Below, piece after piece: positions 7,214 to 57,934 of a stretch of DNA of 64,000 nt. Under the pieces are notes generated by a model. The model saw only the letters and a program-made list of their open reading frames with translations. It did no database searches and was not told the origin of the DNA. The DNA comes from Candidatus Magasanikiibacteriota bacterium (GTDB lineage: Bacteria; Patescibacteriota; Patescibacteriia; Magasanikbacterales; UBA922), in contig JABIFP010000020.1 in the NCBI GenBank assembly GCA_018650645.1, positions 82,529-146,528 of the forward strand. Reading direction: 5' to 3'. The translations under genes were made by a program, and so were the position numbers. The number at the start of each line of letters is the position of its first letter. Position 1 is the first letter of the stretch.

Positions 7214-8066
7214 TATCTATTGAGAGAAGTATATCACCCTTTTGTGCAGTCTGCCAAACTGAAGCGCCATTTTTTTTGAGCCTATCTGTTACTGACCTTG
7301 CTGGATGTCCGTACGAATTATCCTTACTTGCAGAAATGATCGCATGTTCCGGAGAGACTGCTTCAAGAAAAGAAGCACCCGATGAGGTCTTACTTCCGTG
7401 GTGTCCTACTTTTAAAATATCAACATCAAGCTTCTCAGCATACGTTTCAACTAAGTATGTTTCTAACGCTGATTCTGCATCACCGGTAAGCAAAACACTG
7501 GTATCACCAACATCTACTCGCATAACAATTGATGTATCGTTACTATCAAACGAAGTACTCCCTGGAACCAGCGGATCGTCTTGCATATTATGATCCGGAT
7601 ACAGTACCTGCAAGCGCGCTTCCCCAAGAATAAATTCTCTCGGCTCCATAATTACCATTTCTTCTGCATATTCCTTCTCAACATACCCTAAAAATGATGT
7701 ATATAGCGTGTTTTGCTTCCCTACTCCTGTGAGAATAATTTGTTCCACATCAAACCCCGCTAATACATCCATACAGCCAGCATAATGATCAGCATCAGGA
7801 TGGGTAATGACCATATACGTAATTGTTCTATCAAACGCTGGCATGACCCGCCCAAGGGCATCAAGCACCTGCGCGCCGCGTGAACAATCTATAAGCATAT
7901 CTTCCCCATTTGTAAACTGCAGGTAGGTTGCATCGCCTTGCCCGACGTCTAAAAATGCGATACGCGTGTTCGCAGAAGAGAATGATTGGAGCTCAGAAGA
8001 AAATATTCCAAGAAGTATAACTATTGCAGCAGTAAGAAGCTGCATGAGTGCATGATTTTTTTTCAT
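7191..8066 (-). CDS. Metallo-beta-lactamase-fold protein (ComEC C-terminal-domain-like) with its own signal/TM segment
   Basis: DVGQGDATYL...HPDADH and HHGSKTS MBL motifs; it sits immediately downstream of the ComEC membrane gene. Confidence 0.7.
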   Translation of the reverse strand: MKKNHALMQLLTAAIVILLGIFSSELQSFSSANTRIAFLDVGQGDATYLQFTNGEDMLIDCSRGAQVLDALGRVMPAFDRTITYMVITHPDADHYAGCMDVLAGFDVEQIILTGVGKQNTLYTSFLGYVEKEYAEEMVIMEPREFILGEARLQVLYPDHNMQDDPLVPGSTSFDSNDTSIVMRVDVGDTSVLLTGDAESALETYLVETYAEKLDVDILKVGHHGSKTSSGASFLEAVSPEHAIISASKDNSYGHPARSVTDRLKKNGASVWQTAQKGDILLSIDIDSYDIQ

Positions 8067-8069
8067 AAG

Positions 8070-9485
8070 TTATTTTAGTATATCACGGCGAATGAGCAAT
8101 CTATATGCATATGCAAGTATGGCGTACATAAGCAGCATTTGCCAAGCAGTAATAGAAACCAATATCTGCGCACCTGCAGCATGTGCAACATAAGTAATAA
8201 CAGCGAATATATATTTCATTAAAAGTAGAGCGAGTGAAGAAAAAAGACTCGCTACAATTCCAAGCGGAAGTAGCGAAATTACACCACACAGCATCACAAA
8301 CGGCACAGCCCAAAGAATAGCAACATTTGCAAAAATGCCAAGCAGCGATACACGCTCAAATGTAAACAGTACATAGGGTGCGGTAATAATTGATGCAGCG
8401 CAAGAAGCAGCTATTACCTGACGCAAGCCTTTTATAGGCAATATTCCTGACAGCTGCTTTTCAAGCGGCGTAGCCACATACACCAGTCCCATAGTTGCCA
8501 ATACTGAAAGAATAAATCCAGCATCATGGAGCAATATATATGGATTGTAGATGCACATGGCTGTAGCCGCATACAATAATATTCTCCCAGCAGACTGCCG
8601 CCTTCCCATAGAAAACGCGTACACTCCCAAAAGCCCCATAATTGCAGCTCTCACAACGCTGGCAGAAGCGCCAACAAATATTGTAAATAAAATAACAGCA
8701 ATGCTGCTCACCCAAATGGCATACTGCCTACGAATGTGCAAAAATGGCGCGATAGAAAAAAATCCCTGTACAATAAGCGTGATGTTATATCCAGATATGG
8801 CAATAATGTGAATCGTTCCAGTGATAATAAACAACTCTTCCGCAGGCCCTAATCCACCTCTATAACCATACAATACGCCAGCCACAAAACTTGCATAGGG
8901 TTCATGCCAGGTAGTCCTGATACGATTGGCAACATAGTACTTTCCCTTTAAAAGTAATCGCTGCCAGCCTGCATGTTCACCAACCTTGCGCATGTCATGC
9001 ACATAGCAACTCCCATGAATTCCCTTAACCAATGCGTATGTATCAAATGCAAAGGTCTCTGAGGCAGCAGGAGTTTTTGCATCACAGCGCAGCTGTATAT
9101 CGTCGCCAAGCATATATGCGGGATACCTCTCTGCATACACCCAAATGCGCTGTGCTGTGCCACTTGGCTGCACCATATACATTGCCCGCTTTCTACGGAT
9201 ATCAGGCTCAGCAATAATTTCTCCTTTCCACATGCCTTCTGGTAGCACCATACTGAGTTCTTGATAGCGCAGAACATATCCTTGAACATGGAAAAAACCA
9301 AGCAAGGCCAAACAAAAACACAGTATGGCCAGCTGTCTATATTTCAGCGCTATTACACCCACAATAGCAATCACCCAAATATACTCATAGATAACGATTC
9401 CGAGCAGAAAACAAAAACAAGCCACAACAACGGACTTGCTTTTTGTTATTACCTGCCGACTACTCCCCAGTAGCGGAAGAGGCAT
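8070..9485 (-). CDS. comEC: ComEC/Rec2-family competence membrane channel protein (DUF4131 + competence domain, no MBL domain)
   Basis: Polytopic membrane protein of 471 aa. The domain order and the adjacency to the separate MBL-domain ORF suggest a split ComEC. Confidence 0.6.
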   Translation of the reverse strand: MPLPLLGSSRQVITKSKSVVVACFCFLLGIVIYEYIWVIAIVGVIALKYRQLAILCFCLALLGFFHVQGYVLRYQELSMVLPEGMWKGEIIAEPDIRRKRAMYMVQPSGTAQRIWVYAERYPAYMLGDDIQLRCDAKTPAASETFAFDTYALVKGIHGSCYVHDMRKVGEHAGWQRLLLKGKYYVANRIRTTWHEPYASFVAGVLYGYRGGLGPAEELFIITGTIHIIAISGYNITLIVQGFFSIAPFLHIRRQYAIWVSSIAVILFTIFVGASASVVRAAIMGLLGVYAFSMGRRQSAGRILLYAATAMCIYNPYILLHDAGFILSVLATMGLVYVATPLEKQLSGILPIKGLRQVIAASCAASIITAPYVLFTFERVSLLGIFANVAILWAVPFVMLCGVISLLPLGIVASLFSSLALLLMKYIFAVITYVAHAAGAQILVSITAWQMLLMYAILAYAYRLLIRRDILK

Positions 9486-11693: not shown

Positions 11694-12620
11694 CTAGAGT
11701 GAATAATAATGATGTTGGCCGCGCCATTTCCACAAATACTTGAACCAACTTTTTACATGAATACGTGCGAGTTTGTTTTTAAATAATGCTCTAAATACTC
11801 CTGGTACTTTCGCGGAACCTCTGCCATGAATATGTACCAGTGTCACTGTTGGCACATAATACACTGGCCACCCAGCATCCCACATCCTGCGGCACCAATC
11901 GATATCTTCATAATACATAAAGAACCGATCATCAAACATGCCCACCTGCTTCATAGCATCTGCGCGCACAAACATTGCAGACCCCATGAGGGCATCCACC
12001 GGCCGCACTTTGCTGTGGTCAATCTCTTTCATGTGATGAAACGCCACCCGCTGCTTTCCGTGATCAGTTTGACCAAGTCTTGTTCGCTGATATAACGGCT
12101 GCAATAGTGGTGGAAATCGCCAACAAGAAAATTGTAATCCACCATCCGGATACTGTAATCGTGGGCCAATCATACCAATGCGTGGATTCTCTTGCATAAA
12201 CTGGTACAGCCCCTCAATAACCGATTCACCTGTCAAAAATTCTGTGTCTGGATTCAGTGCAAAATAATATTGCGCCTCATGTGCGCTGAGACCCGCATTT
12301 TGTGCAAACCCGAATCCTTTATTCTCTGACAGCTCAATACAGTGCACATTGGGAAATCGTTTTTGCAAAAATGCTTTTATTCCATCACCCGAATTATTAT
12401 CAACCACGGTGATTTGCACAGAAAGACTGCTTTTTACTAATTCCGCGTATAGCGAAGAAAGACAGACTTCAATGTTGTCTTTCATTTTGTAGTTTACAAT
12501 GACAATTGAGACATCTTTCATATTACGTGTTCCAGTAAATACGCATCTGTTTCCATGAGAGTTGGCGTTTGGCAGTAATTTCTTTTCTTCTCTTACGAAT
12601 CGACCCATAGTTACGCACAC
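11694..12620 (-). CDS. Glycosyltransferase family 2 (rhamnosyltransferase-like)
   Basis: VSIVIVNYK...VVDNNSGDG GT-A N-terminus and YYEDIDWCRR motif. The true start is probably the internal MKDVSIV, which removes the overlap with the upstream gene. Confidence 0.7.
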   Translation of the reverse strand: MCVTMGRFVREEKKLLPNANSHGNRCVFTGTRNMKDVSIVIVNYKMKDNIEVCLSSLYAELVKSSLSVQITVVDNNSGDGIKAFLQKRFPNVHCIELSENKGFGFAQNAGLSAHEAQYYFALNPDTEFLTGESVIEGLYQFMQENPRIGMIGPRLQYPDGGLQFSCWRFPPLLQPLYQRTRLGQTDHGKQRVAFHHMKEIDHSKVRPVDALMGSAMFVRADAMKQVGMFDDRFFMYYEDIDWCRRMWDAGWPVYYVPTVTLVHIHGRGSAKVPGVFRALFKNKLARIHVKSWFKYLWKWRGQHHYYSL

Positions 12621-14465: not shown

Positions 14466-14502
14466 GGAAAAAAACAACCCCTACGTCGCACGGACGTAGG
14501 GG
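14466..14502 (-). terminator. Intrinsic terminator for the foreign gene: CCCCTACGTC-GCACG-GACGTAGGGG followed by a T-run on the minus strand
   Basis: Perfect 10-bp stem, 5-nt loop, and a T7 tract on the minus strand immediately downstream of the stop at 14538. Confidence 0.65.
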
Positions 14503-14537: not shown

Positions 14538-15074
14538 TCAGCCCGTGAAGGTGACCAGCCGCGCCGCGATGTCGGCAAGCTCGAGGATCTCCACGGACAT
14601 GTCCGTCAGACTGCCCACCGGCACCAGGACCGCATCGTAGCCGATGATCCGGTTCTGGTCCTTCTGGAGCAAGTGCGAAAGCGCCCACACCTCACCGTCG
14701 ACGACGAAGTTTCCGCTCTCATCGACCGTGAACTCCTTCTTCTGGAAGACGATCCAGTGGGTCAGGCCCGCGCGGTGGACAACCTTGCCATCCTTCACGC
14801 AGATGAAGCCAGCGATCGCTTCCGCAGGCATGGCCGACTCACCTTGCCCGTTGTAGTACGTGACCCCTTCCGGGCACACCAGGCGAAGGGTCGGCTCGGC
14901 GTCGATGATGGGCGCGCCGTACGCGCCGTTCTTCAACTGGTAGAAGAGGTTCTGACCATCTTTCCCCGGGTTGAAGAAGTTGTAGCTGTCCGCCTCGTAG
15001 GTCATGGTGGTCTTGCTGTCCCCCACGACTGCGAACTCAAACACCCACTGACCACAGGTGATTTTCACCTTCAT
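14538..15074 (-). CDS. Compositionally foreign (high-G+C) hypothetical protein of 178 aa (MKVKITCGQWVFEF...); function unknown
   Basis: Strong G/C bias at third codon positions, unlike the neighbours. Consensus SD AAGGAG 6 nt before the ATG at 15074. Own terminator. The supplied 206-aa ORF extends upstream of the SD-supported start. Confidence 0.6.
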   Translation of the reverse strand: MKVKITCGQWVFEFAVVGDSKTTMTYEADSYNFFNPGKDGQNLFYQLKNGAYGAPIIDAEPTLRLVCPEGVTYYNGQGESAMPAEAIAGFICVKDGKVVHRAGLTHWIVFQKKEFTVDESGNFVVDGEVWALSHLLQKDQNRIIGYDAVLVPVGSLTDMSVEILELADIAARLVTFTG

Positions 15075-15105
15075 CTCAAACTCCTTAAGTCGTGCTCTCC
15101 ACACC

Positions 15106-15135
15106 CAAAAAACAGGCGTAGATACACCTGTTTTA
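15106..15135 (-). terminator. Hairpin plus T-run on the minus strand, downstream of the 15162..15947 gene
   Basis: ACAGG-TGTATCTACG-CCTGT followed by TTTTTT on the minus strand. It lies between the stop at 15162 and the SD of the foreign gene. Confidence 0.4.
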
Positions 15136-15161
15136 TCAAAAAAATCCCTATTTGTCAACCC

Positions 15162-15947
15162 TTACACCTCACTTAATGCCCCATCCACAATCTGCTGCGC
15201 CATTCCTACGCGCTTTCGCCATTCATGCGCATCATTATTGATTTGGTCTCTCCAGTGATCAATACCCCCAGCAGCCTCAACTAATGCCAAAAACTGATGT
15301 GGTGTTTCCCACTCAAGGCCTTCAAATGTCATGTATGACCGCGGCAATGCAGCCTTATGCAGCGCACTCCACCACTGCCCCCAAATACCCACATCGTCTC
15401 TGCTTTGTAACCCTAAAATCACCGCAATGGCTTCGCTCGAATAATAAAAAGCCCCGCTCAAATAATCATGCACCTCGTCTTCACCAAGGGTATGCGCAAT
15501 AACTCTGTTTGCAATGCGCTCTGTTTCAATCAATGGCTCTTGATGCATTGCATACCCGCGTTTTGATCGCTCGCACACAATATAATCCGGTAAAGCTGGC
15601 CAATCAACCACAAAAAGTTCTTTTACAAAGGCTTCTAATTCTTTTTTATGTGATGCACACCAATGCAGTGCCCTATCTAAGTCAATATAGAGTAAACCGT
15701 CTTTTCCATACTTTGCTCCTTCTGCAATTGCACGGCGATAAATCTGCCCCACATTGTTTTCTTTTTGAATCACTACGTTCCACTTCGCTTTTTTTAGTGC
15801 CTCAATAACATTCTTTTTTGTAAGCGGTGTACAAACAACAACAGCACTGCCAAAAAATACTTTTAATCGACCTGCAAATTCTTCTATTCGCGCCAGAAGC
15901 GCTCCCTGAGGATCATGATATGTACACGCAAGAGTAATCTTCGCCAT
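15162..15947 (-). CDS. Hypothetical protein in the glycan cluster (possibly a sugar-nucleotide-dependent transferase); no recognisable motif
   Basis: 261-aa ORF with host-like composition, between rfbD and the GT2 block. Confidence 0.35.
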   Translation of the reverse strand: MAKITLACTYHDPQGALLARIEEFAGRLKVFFGSAVVVCTPLTKKNVIEALKKAKWNVVIQKENNVGQIYRRAIAEGAKYGKDGLLYIDLDRALHWCASHKKELEAFVKELFVVDWPALPDYIVCERSKRGYAMHQEPLIETERIANRVIAHTLGEDEVHDYLSGAFYYSSEAIAVILGLQSRDDVGIWGQWWSALHKAALPRSYMTFEGLEWETPHQFLALVEAAGGIDHWRDQINNDAHEWRKRVGMAQQIVDGALSEV

Positions 15948-41808: not shown

Positions 41809-41840
41809 AAAAACTACTCGTATGAGTGGTTTTTTTGTTG
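41809..41840 (+). terminator. Second copy of the 32-bp rpmA terminator (direct repeat) after the 307-aa gene
   Basis: AAAAACTACTCGTATGAGTGGTTTTTTTGTTG identical to 40785..40816. Confidence 0.6.
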
Positions 41841-41869
41841 ACAGAAACAGTAAATAGCCGTAGAGTCTA

Positions 41870-42295
41870 GTGAAACACGAACTCTTGAGGGATTCCATGC
41901 GAAATGTGCTATGGACGGCTCTCTTGATTGCCGTCTTTCGATTTGTGACGTATTCACAAGACCTACCTGAGGTACTGTTCTTTGCGGCTTCCTTTGTGGT
42001 CGTCATGCAGAGGATCCTCTATGAGGTGCAGCGCTCGGCAGAGTCGAAGAAGTATCAACGGTGGGCCATCATTGGTAGCTGGTATGTTCAAAACATCAGC
42101 GCCATGGCGGTGATCCTGGCGGCGATCGCCGGGCTCGGACACTGGGTGAACTTTGTGGACGGCCGATCGAACAGTGAACCCGACCCCGTGCCGCTCGCGC
42201 TGCTACTCCTGCTGTGCGTCGTCGGCCTGGCAGGCTTTCTGTCACTCGACCCAACCAACCCAACCAGCCACCTCGGTGGCAAGGAGGACAACTAG
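41870..42295 (+). CDS. Compositionally foreign (high-G+C) small 4-TM membrane protein; start is GTG 41870 or ATG 41897
   Basis: G+C-rich codons; four hydrophobic helices. GAGGGA precedes ATG 41897 by 4 nt. Own terminator directly after the stop. Confidence 0.5.
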   Translation: MKHELLRDSMRNVLWTALLIAVFRFVTYSQDLPEVLFFAASFVVVMQRILYEVQRSAESKKYQRWAIIGSWYVQNISAMAVILAAIAGLGHWVNFVDGRSNSEPDPVPLALLLLLCVVGLAGFLSLDPTNPTSHLGGKEDN

Positions 42296-42296
42296 T

Positions 42297-42324
42297 GGGC
42301 CGCGCATGCGGTCCTTTTGCTTTT
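42297..42324 (+). terminator. Intrinsic terminator GGGCCGC-GCAT-GCGGTCC followed by TTTTGCTTTT
   Basis: 7-bp stem with one G-U pair, tetraloop, and a T-rich tract immediately after the stop at 42295. Confidence 0.55.
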
Positions 42325-49708: not shown

Positions 49709-50086
49709 TTAGTTCGCCAGCCGAAGGCTAGCGATCCGCAGCATAGTACCAGCAGTCGTGTAGAGCTCCCCAAGGCGCAACTTCGAAAAGTCGACCCCAG
49801 GACGCATCGAACCACTCATAACGAGGACCGGAACAGACGAGAACCTCTCGGTAATAGCCTGTTTAAGCCAGAACCCGTTATGACGGTGCTGCATGTCGAC
49901 GTCCGTAATGACTAGATCGACACGCGTGGTCTCCATCAGCTCGAGAGCCTCTGGAGGGTTATTGGCGAAGACGATGTCAACGTCCATCACGTGCACCCTG
50001 GCCATGTAGCGCAACAAGTTGCGCCGGACCAAGATCTGGATGTTCGTTTCGTCGTCGACGACCAAAACAGTGGGCTTGTTACCCAT
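49709..50086 (-). CDS. Compositionally foreign (high-G+C) single-domain response regulator (CheY-like receiver, 125 aa)
   Basis: LVVDDE acidic pocket, the LVITDVDM phospho-acceptor Asp, and the VLVMSGS Thr/Ser position. SD AGGAG 5 nt before the ATG at 50086. The supplied ORF, extended to 50152, is not supported by the SD. Confidence 0.65.
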   Translation of the reverse strand: MGNKPTVLVVDDETNIQILVRRNLLRYMARVHVMDVDIVFANNPPEALELMETTRVDLVITDVDMQHRHNGFWLKQAITERFSSVPVLVMSGSMRPGVDFSKLRLGELYTTAGTMLRIASLRLAN

Positions 50087-50123
50087 GGTTGCTCCTCTCG
50101 TTGAGGTGCACCACGGGCTTTCA

Positions 50124-50135
50124 CCGTCGGGGGAT
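50124..50135. repeat. Right arm of the 12-bp inverted repeat, CCGTCGGGGGAT
   Basis: See 49563..49574. Confidence 0.6.
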
Positions 50136-50151
50136 AGCCCCAAGTAAACCA

Positions 50152-50415
50152 TTATTTTGACGTTTTGTCAATCCCTAAGCGCGTAATAAGTTGTTGTTTT
50201 TGTTCTTTTGAAAATTGTTTAATCTGCCACTCACGCTTAAGCGCCGCAGATCTATCCGTACATTTCTCACTATACACAAGTGTTATGGGGAGCCGCGCAC
50301 GCACATATTTGGCTCCTTTGCCTGATCTGTGCACCGCTAGCCGTGATTCTAGATCTTTTGCTATTCCTGTATATAAGCTACCGTCTGTGCATGACAAAAT
50401 ATAAACTGTGTACAT
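50152..50415 (-). CDS. GIY-YIG nuclease-family small protein (YhbQ/UPF0213-like)
   Basis: YTVYILSCTDGSLYTGIAKDLESRLAVH GIY-YIG motif; 87 aa; host-like composition. Confidence 0.75.
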   Translation of the reverse strand: MYTVYILSCTDGSLYTGIAKDLESRLAVHRSGKGAKYVRARLPITLVYSEKCTDRSAALKREWQIKQFSKEQKQQLITRLGIDKTSK

Positions 50416-50572: not shown

Positions 50573-50995
50573 CTACTGGGAAAACCTGTTCGGCGGAGGC
50601 GCCTGGGGCCTTGCCTCTTGGAGCAGATGATCGCGGAGTGCGGTAGCGGCGGCTTGCGCAGCACCGTCGATGCTCGCGGCGTCGAGCGGCCCGAGAGCTT
50701 CGGCAGCATTCTGCGCTACAAATACGCGATACGCGCCAGTGAGCGCCTCGATCTGCTCGCCGTTGAGCGGGAACTGCGCAGCGTCAAGCTCAACCTCTCT
50801 GAGCGCTTGCGTATATATATATGTTAGGAAATCCCCAACATTCCCCTCCTGCGCTGACGCCAGCTTGATCTCAGCCGAAAAGGCCTTGACCAACTCACCC
50901 TCGCAAGTGAGAACACTCCCAATTCGTTCCTCGCTGCGCTCTTCTTCAATATTACGAGCGGCCCAGACTTCTGGTACCATGTTTTCCATACCCAT
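50573..50995 (-). CDS. Compositionally foreign (high-G+C) acidic hypothetical protein (140 aa, Ala/Glu-rich, Pro-rich C-terminus)
   Basis: G+C-rich codon usage. AGGGG SD 6 nt before the ATG. A structured ~120-nt 3'UTR with a GCTCC-UUCG-GGAGC hairpin. Confidence 0.55.
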   Translation of the reverse strand: MGMENMVPEVWAARNIEEERSEERIGSVLTCEGELVKAFSAEIKLASAQEGNVGDFLTYIYTQALREVELDAAQFPLNGEQIEALTGAYRVFVAQNAAEALGPLDAASIDGAAQAAATALRDHLLQEARPQAPPPNRFSQ

Positions 50996-53607: not shown

Positions 53608-53749
53608 ATGAATATTAATGATGCCTTCATTGATTACGACCCTATTATAACACCCACATTCTTCCCGTCAAAAAGGCTCCCAAAAACACCCCGTTTTTAA
53701 ACAAATCGGTTAATATGATATGATAGCGAAGCCTTGCGGAGGCAGAGAT

Positions 53750-56707
53750 ATGACAACAAGAACACCTGAAGAAATATTAGACCAACCCAAGGTCTCTTTA
53801 GTAGAGGTCTATTTGCAGTTGCAACAGCATTACGAAGGGGTGTTTGGTGAAAATGCTATCATTATTATGGAAGTTGGTTCATTTTACGAAGTGTATGGTG
53901 TGGATAATGCAGAGATGAAGATTGGGAAACCAAAAGAGATTGCAGAAGTACTTAACATTCAACTTACAAGACGAAATAAACGAGATCTGCAAAATAGTAT
54001 GAAGAATCCCCTCCTTGCGGGATTCCCTACTGCTACATTTGATAGATACATTGGCAGACTCACCGCAGAAAATCGCTATACCATTATTATTGTAAGGCAA
54101 AAAGGAGCACCACCAAATGTAGAGAGATATATTGACCGCGTGTTGTCTCCTGGGGTGAACTTTGATTACCGACCAGGCCACGATGAACAAACCATGGCGA
54201 GTGTGCTTGTTGAAATGTCTGGCAACATGTATAACGCGGCGTATTCAGCAATAGATGTTGCTACCGGCAAGTCCTACGTTTTTGAAGCGCACAGCACAGG
54301 GGAAGATCATACCGCTGCGCTTGATGCTATCTTTCATCTGCTCCAATCGCGTGGTACAGGAGAAGTGGTGCTCACGTGTAGCCCTGACATTGCCCCTTTT
54401 GTAACAGACTATTTGGAACTCCAAAATATTGGCAGCCTAACAACGCAAGAAAAACGACTTGATGTAGCGTTTCAAAATACGCTGCTCGGCTCAACATATA
54501 ATATTGAATCATACCTTTCTGCGGTTGAAACACTCGATTTAGAAAAGACACCACTTGCTTCTGAAGCGCTGGCGCTTGTCATCGATTGGATTATTCAGCA
54601 TGAACGGCCTTTGGCAGAACGACTGCATCGACCAATGCTTTTGCGCAATAATGCCTTTTTATATTTAGGAAACGATCCACTCCATCAGCTTGCAATGCTG
54701 TCTCATGATCCGCATGAGCAGACTATTCTCAAACTCATGAACCATACGCGCACCAGCATTGGTCGCAGGCTTTTGAAAGACCGACTCCTCCACCCTATTA
54801 CCAATCCAGAAGAAATGACGGCGCGATATGATTTAGCAGATGCCGTGGCGCCACTGATTACGGAAATTGAAATTCATTTGCGTGAAGTGTATGACATAGA
54901 ACGCCTTGCCCGCAGATTACGGCTTGGTCGGCTGCATCCGTTTGAAGTAAACTTTTTGTTCGACTCTCTTGAAGCAGCCATTAATATTATTACCACGCTT
55001 GAGTCTCAAGATCTTCCTGCAATAAAACAGCTGCAGGATCATAAAGAAACCATTCAAACCTGTATTAAAGAAGTGAAAGCACATTTTTCACTTTCAGAAA
55101 CTGGGCAAGTGACCAATCAAGCTATTTCAAGGTCTTTGTTTAAACAAGGATTTGATAAAGAACTCGATGCCATGCTTGCGCAAAAAGAAGCTGAAGAAGC
55201 AAAGCTTGAGCTGATTAAAGAAAAAATGGTTGAGCTGCTCCTTGATGCAACGGGAAAAGACGAGAGCAACTTTGTGGTAATAAAACAAATGGATAAAGAT
55301 GGTCACTACATTTCTTTGACCAAAAGCCGGTATGCACAAATTCAAGAAGCGCTTAGTGACACGTACGTGTCGATTGATGAAACCGTGTATGCATTTTCTG
55401 ATTTCAGATTTAAAGTGCAAGTTGGCAATGTAAAAATCACCGCAGGAATTATTGATGACGTCTCTGGTAGTATTGTTTCTTTACAAACAAAAATAATTGG
55501 TCGAGTACGTGAACTATTTGCACAAGAGCTTGTAAGTTTGGACACAACCTTTGGCGATACTATTCATATGGTAAGTGGATTACTTGCCGCGATTGATGTA
55601 GCTGTTTCTACCGCTAAGGCGGCACAAACGTTGCGGCTCGTAAGGCCAGAACTTACCGCATCAAAAAATCATGAAAACTATTTAGAGATTGCAGATTTAC
55701 GCCACCCTCTTGTAGAGGCGCGTGAGGAAAATGGAATTTATATAACAAATAATGTACTGCTCGGTTCTGCTGAGTATACTAATGACAATACACTACCAAT
55801 GCTGCCTGAAGCTGATGATGTGCGCGGCCTTTTGCTATACGGCATCAATGCAAGTGGAAAGTCGTCCTTTATGAAAGCTATAGGGATTGCTGTAATGCTT
55901 GCTCAAGCTGGGTTTTTTGTTCCAGCAACCAGGATGCGATTTAGTCCATTTGAAGAACTCTTTACGCGAATATTAGCAAAAGATAATGTAGAGCGCGGTC
56001 TTTCTTCCTTTGCAGTAGAAATGATGGAACTTAAAAATATTTTTACGCGCTGCTCCCCAAAAAGTTTGATTCTAGGCGATGAGATTTGCCGTGGAACAGA
56101 AACACTTTCTGCTATTGCTATTGTAAGCGCCGCAGTAAAGCGCCTCAGTGAAAAAGGAAGTCTCTTTTTGTTCACCACCCATCTGCATCAGCTAGCAAAC
56201 CTAGATGTGTTCTCTTCCCTACCGCATGTGGTCTGTGGCCACCTTGCCGTTCGGTATGATGAAGCGCAGGATTTGCTTATCTTTGACAGAACTCTGCAAC
56301 AAGGAAGTGGAAGTAGCATTTACGGACTCGAGTTTGCGCAGTCTCTTCACATGGATGAAACCTTCCTCAAAGATGCCATGAATATCCGGAAACATTTGGC
56401 CGATGATTTTGATGAACTGGAACTACTCACAAAAAAAGTAAAAAGTGCATATAATAAAGACCTGTTCTTATCTTCGTGCAGCTTGTGTCATAATAAAGCA
56501 GAAGAAACACATCATATTTCTCCGCAAGAGATTGCAGATAAGCACGGAAACATTGGTCACTTTCATAAAAATCATAAAGCCAACCTTATTACCCTTTGCG
56601 ATGATTGTCATGACAATATCCATCACGGGAAAATAAAAGTGAAAGGATATGTGATGACGAGTAAAGGGTTGCAGCTGGATGTTGAGGAGATGGAACAAGA
56701 ATCATAA
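53750..56707 (+). CDS. MutS-family protein with C-terminal HNH endonuclease domain (MutS-HNH fusion)
   Basis: MutS domain I (GSFYEVYGVDNAE), Walker A GINASGKSSFMKAIG, and a C-terminal HNH motif (C..CH...HHI.P...HGNIGHFH.NH..NLITLCDDCHDNIHHG). SD GGAGG precedes the ATG at 53750; the supplied ORF starts at 53720. Confidence 0.75.
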   Translation: MTTRTPEEILDQPKVSLVEVYLQLQQHYEGVFGENAIIIMEVGSFYEVYGVDNAEMKIGKPKEIAEVLNIQLTRRNKRDLQNSMKNPLLAGFPTATFDRYIGRLTAENRYTIIIVRQKGAPPNVERYIDRVLSPGVNFDYRPGHDEQTMASVLVEMSGNMYNAAYSAIDVATGKSYVFEAHSTGEDHTAALDAIFHLLQSRGTGEVVLTCSPDIAPFVTDYLELQNIGSLTTQEKRLDVAFQNTLLGSTYNIESYLSAVETLDLEKTPLASEALALVIDWIIQHERPLAERLHRPMLLRNNAFLYLGNDPLHQLAMLSHDPHEQTILKLMNHTRTSIGRRLLKDRLLHPITNPEEMTARYDLADAVAPLITEIEIHLREVYDIERLARRLRLGRLHPFEVNFLFDSLEAAINIITTLESQDLPAIKQLQDHKETIQTCIKEVKAHFSLSETGQVTNQAISRSLFKQGFDKELDAMLAQKEAEEAKLELIKEKMVELLLDATGKDESNFVVIKQMDKDGHYISLTKSRYAQIQEALSDTYVSIDETVYAFSDFRFKVQVGNVKITAGIIDDVSGSIVSLQTKIIGRVRELFAQELVSLDTTFGDTIHMVSGLLAAIDVAVSTAKAAQTLRLVRPELTASKNHENYLEIADLRHPLVEAREENGIYITNNVLLGSAEYTNDNTLPMLPEADDVRGLLLYGINASGKSSFMKAIGIAVMLAQAGFFVPATRMRFSPFEELFTRILAKDNVERGLSSFAVEMMELKNIFTRCSPKSLILGDEICRGTETLSAIAIVSAAVKRLSEKGSLFLFTTHLHQLANLDVFSSLPHVVCGHLAVRYDEAQDLLIFDRTLQQGSGSSIYGLEFAQSLHMDETFLKDAMNIRKHLADDFDELELLTKKVKSAYNKDLFLSSCSLCHNKAEETHHISPQEIADKHGNIGHFHKNHKANLITLCDDCHDNIHHGKIKVKGYVMTSKGLQLDVEEMEQES

Positions 56708-56731
56708 AACGCCCAAAAGGGCGTTTTTGCT
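56706..56731 (+). terminator. Intrinsic terminator after the MutS-HNH gene (AAAACGCCC-AAAA-GGGCGTTTT)
   Basis: Perfect 9-bp stem followed by TTTTTGCTT. Confidence 0.6.
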
Positions 56732-56732
56732 T

Positions 56733-56775
56733 ATAAAAAAAGAACCGGCCCCACAACGTGTGTGTGAGCCGGCAT
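56733..56775 (-). terminator. Intrinsic terminator for the foreign 226-aa gene (GCCGGC, long loop, GGCCGG, then T-run on the minus strand)
   Basis: The hairpin is followed by CTTTTTTTAT on the minus strand, downstream of the stop at 56819. Confidence 0.4.
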
Positions 56776-56818
56776 TGTCACCGCGACGATAGTGCCGTGG
56801 TGGCGATAGGCGCAAGGC

Positions 56819-57499
56819 CTAGAGCCTGCAGCCGTTGCGAGCCACCGAGATAGCGTTCGCGAGCTTGCTTTCGACGGTCATCCTCGTCCTCTCCTCGAGG
56901 GGATAACCACCATAGTGAGCCACCTTCACGGGAGATTCATCGTGAAGGTCTACCACGATGGGAACATTCCGTGACTTGTCACCGGACGCGAGAGAAACCG
57001 CAATGATCTTTCCCTCACGGATCGTGATCTCCGGACGCTGCTGCCCCCCAGCCGAAGTCCTCAGAAGAGACATCACGTCCCGGAGAAGATCATCGCTGAT
57101 CACGATTTCCAGCTCACCGAAGGCTCCGCGGAGTTTCGCCATCACATCCAGATAGAACTCCGCTTCACGATGTAGCTGACGCAATTGCCTAAGCTCCACG
57201 TGCAGACCCGAGATGGCCTTGTGCATCGGGAGGGCATCCTCACCCCTCCGACAATGCAGCACCAGGATGCGTCCCGAGAAAGGCCCCGCGGCAATCACTT
57301 TCGGATCGCTCTGAGGGAGCATTTTCACACGCGCGCACCGCTTCCAGCTGAGAACCGTGGGTACTGGACCCACGCCAGGATACTGCACCCAGTGCTCCAC
57401 CAGCTCTTCCAGCTGATTCTCCGTGAGTTTGATCCGCTGATCCACTAGCACGTGCTGGATCGTCGCCTTCAGGGCCGCATAGAATGCCGCACTGATCAT
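56819..57499 (-). CDS. Compositionally foreign (high-G+C) hypothetical protein (226 aa); no recognisable domain
   Basis: Strong G/C bias at third positions in an AT-rich context; own terminator; AT-rich upstream region. Confidence 0.5.
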   Translation of the reverse strand: MISAAFYAALKATIQHVLVDQRIKLTENQLEELVEHWVQYPGVGPVPTVLSWKRCARVKMLPQSDPKVIAAGPFSGRILVLHCRRGEDALPMHKAISGLHVELRQLRQLHREAEFYLDVMAKLRGAFGELEIVISDDLLRDVMSLLRTSAGGQQRPEITIREGKIIAVSLASGDKSRNVPIVVDLHDESPVKVAHYGGYPLEERTRMTVESKLANAISVARNGCRL

Positions 57500-57673
57500 C
57501 TCTCTTGTCCTAACACCCCTCCCTGGGGATTATGGCGCATTGCGCCGTTTTAGTTCGAGTAGAGCTAACCAGAAAACAGCCATTTTGTCAATGGTAGTGC
57601 TTCCCCACTCGTGCACAGAAAGACTCTATGGTATACTTTATTCATCATTGTATTTATTTTTTTCTCACACTCT

Positions 57674-57892
57674 ATGAAGGGAAACATGGGAGGACTCACC
57701 AAGCTTTGCTGGGTTCTATTAATCGTTGGAGGACTCAATTGGGGACTCGTTGGAGCATTTGAATGGAATTTAGTCACTGCACTTTTTGGAAGTGTTGAAT
57801 GGCTCGAACGACTTGTATATATCCTCGTTGGGCTTTCAGCTCTCTGCGGACTCGCAACCCTGAAAAAAGGATGTTGCAGCAAAAAAGCATAA
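57674..57892 (+). CDS. DUF378-family small membrane protein
   Basis: LLIVGGLNWGLVGAFEWNLV is the DUF378 signature. The supplied ORF starts at 57611; the ATG at 57674 fits the usual family length. Confidence 0.6.
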   Translation: MKGNMGGLTKLCWVLLIVGGLNWGLVGAFEWNLVTALFGSVEWLERLVYILVGLSALCGLATLKKGCCSKKA

Positions 57893-57906
57893 GAACGCAA
57901 AAAAAG

Positions 57907-57934
57907 TCCGAAAGGGCTTTTTTTGTTATGTCTA
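57907..57934 (+). terminator. Intrinsic terminator after the DUF378 gene (A7, GTCC-GAAA-GGGC, T7)
   Basis: GNRA-tetraloop hairpin flanked by A and T runs. Confidence 0.5.

Follow-up and report, generated by a model that had tools for sequence, protein, structure and literature searches.

A probable foreign orphan gene cassette beside the MutS-HNH gene of a Magasanikbacteria chromosome

The stretch of DNA analyzed here, which we call the window, covers 64 kb of Magasanikbacteria core chromosome, with genes for ribosomal proteins, RpoA, AlaRS, PheST, MurG, FtsW, MreB, ComEC, glycosyltransferases and ClpB, and with an Fe-S oxidoreductase and an M48 peptidase among the further neighbors. Within it, a single orphan open reading frame (ORF), g5, lies between a MutS-HNH gene on its left, which is convergent with it, and a gene for a small DUF378 membrane protein on its right, which is divergent from it. 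NCBI annotates g5 as a hypothetical protein (HOE53_03015 / MBT4153597.1) of a Candidatus Magasanikbacteria metagenome-assembled genome. An earlier sequence-only reading had placed a 226-residue, foreign, G+C-rich gene at this spot, and its position, its ATG start, the sequence quoted for it and its two neighbors all agree with what we find. As argued below, g5 is probably a real coding cassette that was acquired recently from a foreign source. The coordinates of the features are collected in Table 1.

The composition of g5 sets it apart from the native genes. The survey took in all non-overlapping ORFs of the window, and the statistics for G+C at third codon positions (GC3) come from the 63 ORFs of at least 100 amino acids (aa). 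Native GC3 has a median of 0.34, a standard deviation (sd) of ~0.043 and a highest value of 0.47; g5, at 0.69, lies ~8 sd from the median, a bias as strong as the sequence-only reading had claimed. Five ORFs, g5 included, have GC3 values of 0.62–0.79, and the gap between these and the native ORFs is empty; the cassettes of the other four are called g1–g4. Overall GC is 0.583 for g5 (0.656, 0.401 and 0.692 at the first, second and third codon positions) against 0.424 for the whole window. The difference among codon positions is pronounced (chi-square 47, p=6e-11), and the values of 0.66/0.40/0.69 form a pattern that real genes typically show in genomes of ~58% GC. Codon usage in g5 is negatively correlated with that of the native genes (r=-0.29) and positively with that of the other four GC-rich genes (r=0.59). 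The shift extends beyond silent sites, in that GC at first codon positions (GC1) and amino-acid content are displaced as well.

These figures also bear on whether g5 is a protein gene at all. It might instead be a frame, antisense or open by chance, within a structured RNA, a non-coding GC-rich element or a pseudogene of the opposite strand. GC-rich DNA often has long spurious ORFs, the public gene caller chose the opposite strand at g1, the codon-aligned antisense frame of g5 shows the same GC1/GC3 pattern, and one folding run of the mRNA with 20 shuffles gave z=-3.5. With 40 dinucleotide shuffles, however, the mRNA fold has z=-1.5, and there is no Rfam match; the antisense frames hold 7–12 stops and match no family. 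The three-base periodicity is strong, only 26 of 5000 shuffles of the island (0.5%) contain a stretch of 226 or more codons that stays open, and a motif resembling a ribosome-binding site and a terminator flank exactly the g5 frame. We consider it highly improbable that g5 is not a protein gene. A six-frame scan found 7–13 stops in each of the remaining five frames and no match to a Pfam family. Two particular candidates were rejected: a pseudogene in another frame, for which an Ldr_toxin match (E=0.0056) falls under the cutoff of that family and covers 15 residues only, and a structured non-coding RNA, on the Rfam, 40-shuffle and periodicity results just given.

The compositional signal is not confined to the reading frame. 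Log-likelihood segmentation, together with a composition profile, sets the edges of a GC-rich island (~58% GC against a background of 42%) that holds, besides the ORF, a leader of ~48 nt and a trailer of ~74 nt; because these non-coding parts are taken in, the signal goes beyond codon bias alone. The downstream edge of the island coincides with the last base of the terminator stem. The hairpin-plus-T-run terminator described in the sequence-only reading is clearly present, as a GC-rich hairpin of 30 nt, CCGGCUCACACACACGUUGUGGGGCCGG, followed by UUCUUUUUUU, and the 3' region (56700–56825, minus strand) has a minimum free energy of -53 kcal/mol (z=-5.9), with none of 200 shuffles equally stable. 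In the same fold, two smaller hairpins extend from the end of the frame (its final two sense codons plus the stop) into the 3' untranslated region (UTR). Next comes the terminator of the MutS-HNH gene, with which g5 lies back-to-back, again as had been noted, and which forms the native boundary at the 3' side of the cassette. As an observation of its own, the MutS-HNH terminator (56703–56734) is 78% identical over 32 nt to the terminator of the DUF378 gene (57898–57929); the two are direct repeats that bracket g5 and DUF378, and the likeness is probably one of convergent terminator shape.

At the other end, a short hairpin marks the upstream edge of the island, and the fold of the entire leader is ordinary (z=-1.1). 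A possible ribosome-binding site precedes the ATG. A TTGACA hexamer that may serve as a -35 element stands just beyond the island, in DNA of native composition, and its use would mean that the host provides the promoter. Of the promoter elements that the sequence-only reading had pointed out, both TTGACA and CATAAT (57534–57529) exist, but 47 nt separate them, a spacing that rules them out as a single sigma-70 promoter. The sole -10 candidate at 17 nt from TTGACA is a weak TTAGCT (57568–57563).

An abrupt switch in composition could also come from an assembly or binning chimera, in which DNA of a GC-rich organism was joined to a Magasanikbacteria contig. This explanation is effectively refuted, and we give it a negligible probability. 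The junctions of g5 recur, 100% identical, on at least 20 contigs of up to 407 kb from independent assemblies and pipelines (JGI, ENA and Logan), and because they do, the island is not chimeric; native genes also continue on either side of it. On these contigs the context of g5 is constant, and the exact protein is present. All recovered contigs are 99.93–100% identical, and the seven loci with DNA are 99.98–100% identical to the window. In the 90% cluster of g5 there are three singleton variants, A70D, E203G and R205M, whose contigs have 1–2 single-nucleotide polymorphisms in 3–8 kb relative to the window. The sampled population is essentially clonal, and the g5 cassette is fixed in it.

The g5 protein has a mass of 25.2 kDa, an isoelectric point of 9.0 and a grand average of hydropathy of -0.08, with no hydrophobic segment of membrane-span length and no evident signal peptide. 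It had been described as Arg-rich; at 8.4% Arg the enrichment is modest. An alpha/beta fold had also been proposed. The AlphaFold2 secondary structure, in which helices and strands are mixed, is compatible with that proposal, but its confidence is low and the fold is not established. Judging from these properties and the predicted structure, the product of g5 is probably a soluble basic protein of 25 kDa with mixed alpha/beta structure.

Sequence comparison links g5 to nothing else in the databases searched. A word-indexed protein search of 5.8 billion clusters and an exhaustive phmmer (HMMER) search of 1.84 billion representatives of ~15 billion proteins both match g5 only to itself, and they give no homologue outside its own 90% cluster. 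The best Pfam match is AAA_lid_8 (E=0.11, 12.8 bits against a cutoff of 22.8), NCBIfam, PHROGs and PADLOC give 0 matches each, the best PDB sequence has E=1.1, and tblastn against GenBank phages, PLSDB plasmids and IMG/VR gives nothing significant. The sequence-only reading was thus right that the protein carries no recognizable motif; the profile and structure searches that it had proposed for g5 were run and are uninformative. HEPN (Rx4-6H) and nucleotidyltransferase (hG[GS]...DhD) motifs were sought by eye and rejected, since neither is convincingly present. For a toxin-antitoxin or anti-phage defense system, PADLOC has 0 matches, and g5 is monocistronic, with no partner gene. Nor was there any clear housekeeping homologue with native synteny, which that reading had named as the finding that would speak against it; the nearest sampled genomes have no counterpart. 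The role of g5 might be accessory and strain-specific (for example, in interaction with a host, a phage or another cell) rather than housekeeping, and we place very little confidence in any specific molecular function.

We favor the reading in which g5 is a real foreign coding cassette of recent arrival, and we think it probable. In one clonal population of Magasanikbacteria, a foreign segment of ~800 bp would have entered the core chromosome at a point flanked by the MutS-HNH terminator and the DUF378 gene. The cassette is self-contained and monocistronic, with a hairpin-bearing GC-rich leader, an ORF of 226 codons and its own intrinsic terminator. The insertion appears recent because the composition is wholly unameliorated. 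The donor may be an unsampled bacterium or phage of ~55–60% GC, a bacterial or phage source being suggested by the codon usage, the GC-rich UTRs and the bacterial-type terminator inside the GC-rich segment.

The same cassette could be non-functional passenger DNA, that is, a foreign fragment captured through break repair or natural transformation, too recent for decay and encoding a protein useless to the host. ComEC is encoded in the window, the unameliorated composition would mean a very recent insertion, and the three singleton changes that make up the variation of g5 in the population are all non-synonymous; the lack of a homologue, of an operon partner and of a canonical promoter would also suit DNA without function. 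Yet all five ORFs are intact, g1 and g2 as well as g5 end in clear intrinsic terminators, a plausible ribosome-binding site and a -35 element adjoin g5, and g5 is present without exception on the contigs recovered, which come from many samples. Moreover, the streamlined genomes of Patescibacteria are generally expected to purge useless DNA quickly. We therefore regard passenger DNA as unlikely, although its probability is appreciable.

A number of points count against a recently acquired, functional foreign gene. The transfer would be recent, yet no donor or homologue was found in ~15 billion proteins, including those of metagenomes that contain the host organism; the usual explanation for an absent donor is an unsampled gene pool of phages, plasmids or rare taxa. 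Because no donor was found, the foreign status of g5 is a matter of composition alone. Relatives were sought through the MutS-HNH neighbor in 185,579 species genomes and in JGI metagenomes. The nearest MutS-HNH found is only 54–55% identical, the genomes concerned have no g5 counterpart, and the sampled relatives do not keep MutS and DUF378 together; therefore, an empty site cannot be shown. There is no att/attC site, tRNA, integrase or flanking direct repeat to account for the insertion. As the population is clonal, with its three singleton variants, polymorphism gives no measure of purifying selection. A consensus promoter scan called no minus-strand promoter at g5; transcription would probably begin at the 5' junction, within AT-rich DNA of native type, and end at the cassette hairpin. 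Finally, AlphaFold2 run without an alignment gives no confident fold, its predicted local distance difference test score being 39.9 over the whole protein and 54.0 over residues 99–226; with single-sequence input, this is weak evidence.

Known routes of insertion were considered in turn. The 64-kb window holds no integrase, transposase or phage genes and no tRNA, and repeats flanking the g5 island are short and at chance level only. A classical genomic island or integrative element was rejected, as the locus is without tRNA, meaningful repeats, integrase or transposase. An integron cassette was likewise rejected: no RYYYAAC/GTTRRRY cores lie within 220 nt of the stop, and the window has no integrase.

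The four sister cassettes, which with g5 make up ~5% of the window, are each monocistronic. The 'other four foreign proteins' of the sequence-only reading are real. Their composition bears the signature seen in g5, but no similarity or motif links any of the five cassettes to another, and, as to the co-occurrence that was to be checked according to that reading, they occur together only because they belong to the same clonal genome. Terminator evidence is weaker for g3, where a hairpin lies ~170 nt past the stop, and for g4, where a stem was read by eye and left uncalled by the scan. The best non-self match of g3 (45% identity, E=8e-4) is too distant to carry a donor signal, and inference of a donor through g3 was given up. 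The coding region of g3 has a fold z of -6.75 (40 dinucleotide shuffles), a stability that neither the native genes nor the other cassettes show. At g1, public gene calling took an antisense ORF of 167 aa (14673–15176, plus strand) rather than the minus-strand ORF of 206 aa, and strand assignment is therefore ambiguous in these GC-rich islands. Elsewhere in the window, short ORFs or segments at 1291–1617, 11826–12095 and 10–276 (all plus strand) have GC of 0.47–0.51 and GC3 of 0.52–0.59, slightly above the native range.

Table 1. Features of the g5 locus, the sister cassettes and the loci of relatives (aa, amino acids; nt, nucleotides)
Feature	Sequence	Position	Strand	Details
Orphan ORF g5	window	56819–57499	-	ATG start; intact; 226 aa
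GC-rich island (whole cassette: 5' leader, ORF, 3' UTR, terminator stem)	window	56745–57547	-	803 bp
Intrinsic terminator of g5 cassette	window	56728–56773	-	hairpin 56744–56773; U-run 56743–56728
Two additional small GC-rich hairpins	window	56779–56825	-	same RNA fold as terminator
5'-leader hairpin GGCGCAAUGCGCC	window	57534–57546	-	upstream island edge; plus-strand reading weakly terminator-like
Possible ribosome-binding site AGGAC	window	57507–57511	-	7 nt before ATG; inferred from sequence
TTGACA hexamer, possible -35	window	57586–57591	-	native-composition DNA just outside island
Bidirectional terminator hairpin of MutS-HNH gene	window	56706–56727		terminator scan, fold
MutS-HNH gene, left neighbor	window	53720–56707	+	985–995 aa; Pfam MutS_I/III/V; HNH-like C-terminus
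DUF378 small membrane protein, right neighbor	window	57674–57892	+	72 aa; native composition
g1	window	14538–15158	-	GC 0.58; GC3 0.79; own terminator 14478–14502; no Pfam match
g2	window	41870–42295	+	membrane protein; GC3 0.71; publicly called 132 aa from 41897; TTGACA-17-TAGAGT promoter-like site 41838–41866; terminator 42297–42314
g3	window	49709–50152	-	stand-alone receiver (REC) domain; GC3 0.71; Pfam Response_reg E=5e-11
g4	window	50573–50995	-	140 aa; GC 0.58; no family match
GIY-YIG gene	window	50152–50415	-	87 aa; native composition; flanked by g4 and g3
GC-rich islands in relative	L011	4076–5825 and 8901–9675
GC-rich islands in relative	L016	4251–5275 and 9126–10875
GC-rich island in relative	L008	9101–9625
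GC-rich island in relative	L010	8901–9225
GC-rich island in relative	L089	8001–8825
SET-domain protein in GC-rich island	L008	72–611	+	E=1e-13
Dicty_CTDC Cys-rich repeat protein in GC-rich island	L016	9146–10882	-	578 aa; E=2e-23
Conserved ~110-nt element	L008	~9005–9110		alignment A1 columns 59–165
Conserved ~110-nt element	L089	~7965–8070		alignment A1 columns 59–165
Conserved ~110-nt element	L090	~7960–8065		alignment A1 columns 59–165

The MutS-HNH gene has native composition (GC3 0.36). Its relatives are found in Patescibacteria (48–55% identity) and, as the closest outside that group, in Campylobacterota (Sulfurovum and Hydrogenimonas, 41–46%), a distribution that fits the MutS7 lineage described in PMC3166940. 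In several distant Magasanikbacteria, sharply GC-rich islands (0.57–0.68 against backgrounds of 0.38–0.48) lie directly beside MutS-HNH, 3' of the gene in the loci L008/L088, L010, L011 and L089 and on both sides of it in L011 and L016. In a neighbor-joining tree of MutS, the island-bearing genomes fall into three separate lineages. About 140 Campylobacterota loci have no such GC-rich islands beside the homologous gene. The ORFs in the islands of relatives show no similarity to g5; those of L010, L011 and L089 are secreted and Cys-rich and have a common C-terminal PPDPT motif. An ORF beside MutS in L014, also of 226 aa, was considered as a counterpart of g5 and proved unrelated, the equal length being a coincidence. 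Two islands encode proteins with recognizable domains, SET in one and Dicty_CTDC in the other (Table 1). Both domain types are often linked to eukaryote-like or myxobacterial proteins, and these two may hint at a donor or at an effector role.

The islands of relatives raise the question of whether g5 could be an old, fast-evolving gene of the lineage, with its GC kept high through selection or some local process (GC-biased repair beside a nuclease gene, for example). Their recurrence beside MutS-HNH in three separate Magasanikbacteria lineages is in keeping with this, and the ORFs of L010, L011 and L089, which belong to one clade and have only the PPDPT motif in common, would fit a positional orthologue that diverges rapidly. 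Yet g5 has nothing in common with those ORFs. The edges of its island are sharp and include the UTRs, the adjoining MutS-HNH gene keeps its native composition, five unrelated genes have one foreign codon usage, and the displacement of GC1 and of amino-acid content reaches past silent sites. An old resident gene is, in our judgment, quite improbable.

With recent acquisition of g5 as the preferred reading, the positions of the cassettes can be considered. Three of the five touch the four junctions beside MutS-HNH or GIY-YIG, out of ~70 (hypergeometric p ~7e-4). Among the phylogenetically independent islands of relatives, MutS-HNH is the direct neighbor of 4 out of 7, against an expectation of ~15% (binomial p ~0.01); both p values are post hoc and come from our own arithmetic. 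The ~140 Campylobacterota loci, free of such islands, belong to the same pattern. It is conceivable that GC-rich orphan cassettes of these Magasanikbacteria accumulate at the flanks of HNH or GIY-YIG nuclease genes and that their insertion is non-random, but we think this rather doubtful. If it were true, nuclease-induced breaks or nearby repair would capture foreign DNA, and the 3' flank of MutS-HNH would be a recurrent 'gene nursery'.

Bacteria commonly have orphan genes of deviant composition, and g5 is best filed under a kind that is already well known, the horizontally acquired orphan gene. According to Hendrix and colleagues, prophage morons are reportedly single additional genes, each with a promoter and a terminator of its own, that deviate in composition and lie between two resident genes. 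Like a moron, g5 is a single ORF with its own intrinsic terminator and a composition abruptly unlike that of its neighbors; it is intergenic, its flanking genes are undisturbed, and an accessory function is inferred. Unlike a moron, it lies in core chromosome rather than in a prophage, and the search for a promoter of its own gave no clear one. Taxonomically restricted genes, also called bacterial ORFans, are said to have been treated by Daubin and Ochman in 2004. With these, g5 shares its short length, its restriction to one lineage, its lack of a homologue and a possible origin in phage or in an unsampled gene pool; classic ORFans, however, are usually more AT-rich than the host genome, whereas g5 is 16 percentage points more GC-rich than its host. 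As with integron cassettes, the foreign unit is compact, has a single ORF and is one of several unrelated ones in the genome. The differences are that none of the five ORFs has attC cores downstream, that there is no integrase, and that the five cassettes are scattered rather than in an array, each being credited with its own terminator (on weaker evidence for g3 and g4).

Patescibacteria have many horizontally acquired single genes and small islands, amounting to up to 13% of genome length, and most such transfers take place between Patescibacteria, with donors that can be identified (PMC12455944). The individual acquisition of genes and the share of the window taken up by g5 and its four sisters resemble these transfers; the composition of g5, far from Patescibacteria-like values, and the lack of any donor or homologue in the databases do not. 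What lifts g5 above the routine is the missing donor, together with the possible hot spot beside nuclease genes. On the preferred reading, it would be a clean example of a foreign cassette that is fully intact, self-contained and unameliorated and is fixed in a streamlined genome of the symbiont type. Should it be expressed, its product would stand for a protein family, perhaps even a fold, that has so far gone unsampled. Five cassettes in 64 kb, along with the islands of relatives, suggest that an unsampled pool of GC-rich genes, perhaps that of hosts or of host-associated mobile elements, is a source for marine Magasanikbacteria; such a pool could lead to the identity of the hosts and, within the Candidate Phyla Radiation, to functions of an effector-like kind.

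One further feature was observed at the loci of relatives. The ~110-nt element listed in Table 1 is absent from the window and has no Rfam match. In one clade it is conserved, with native composition, between the MutS-HNH terminator and the GC-rich island, possibly as a short ORF or a small RNA.

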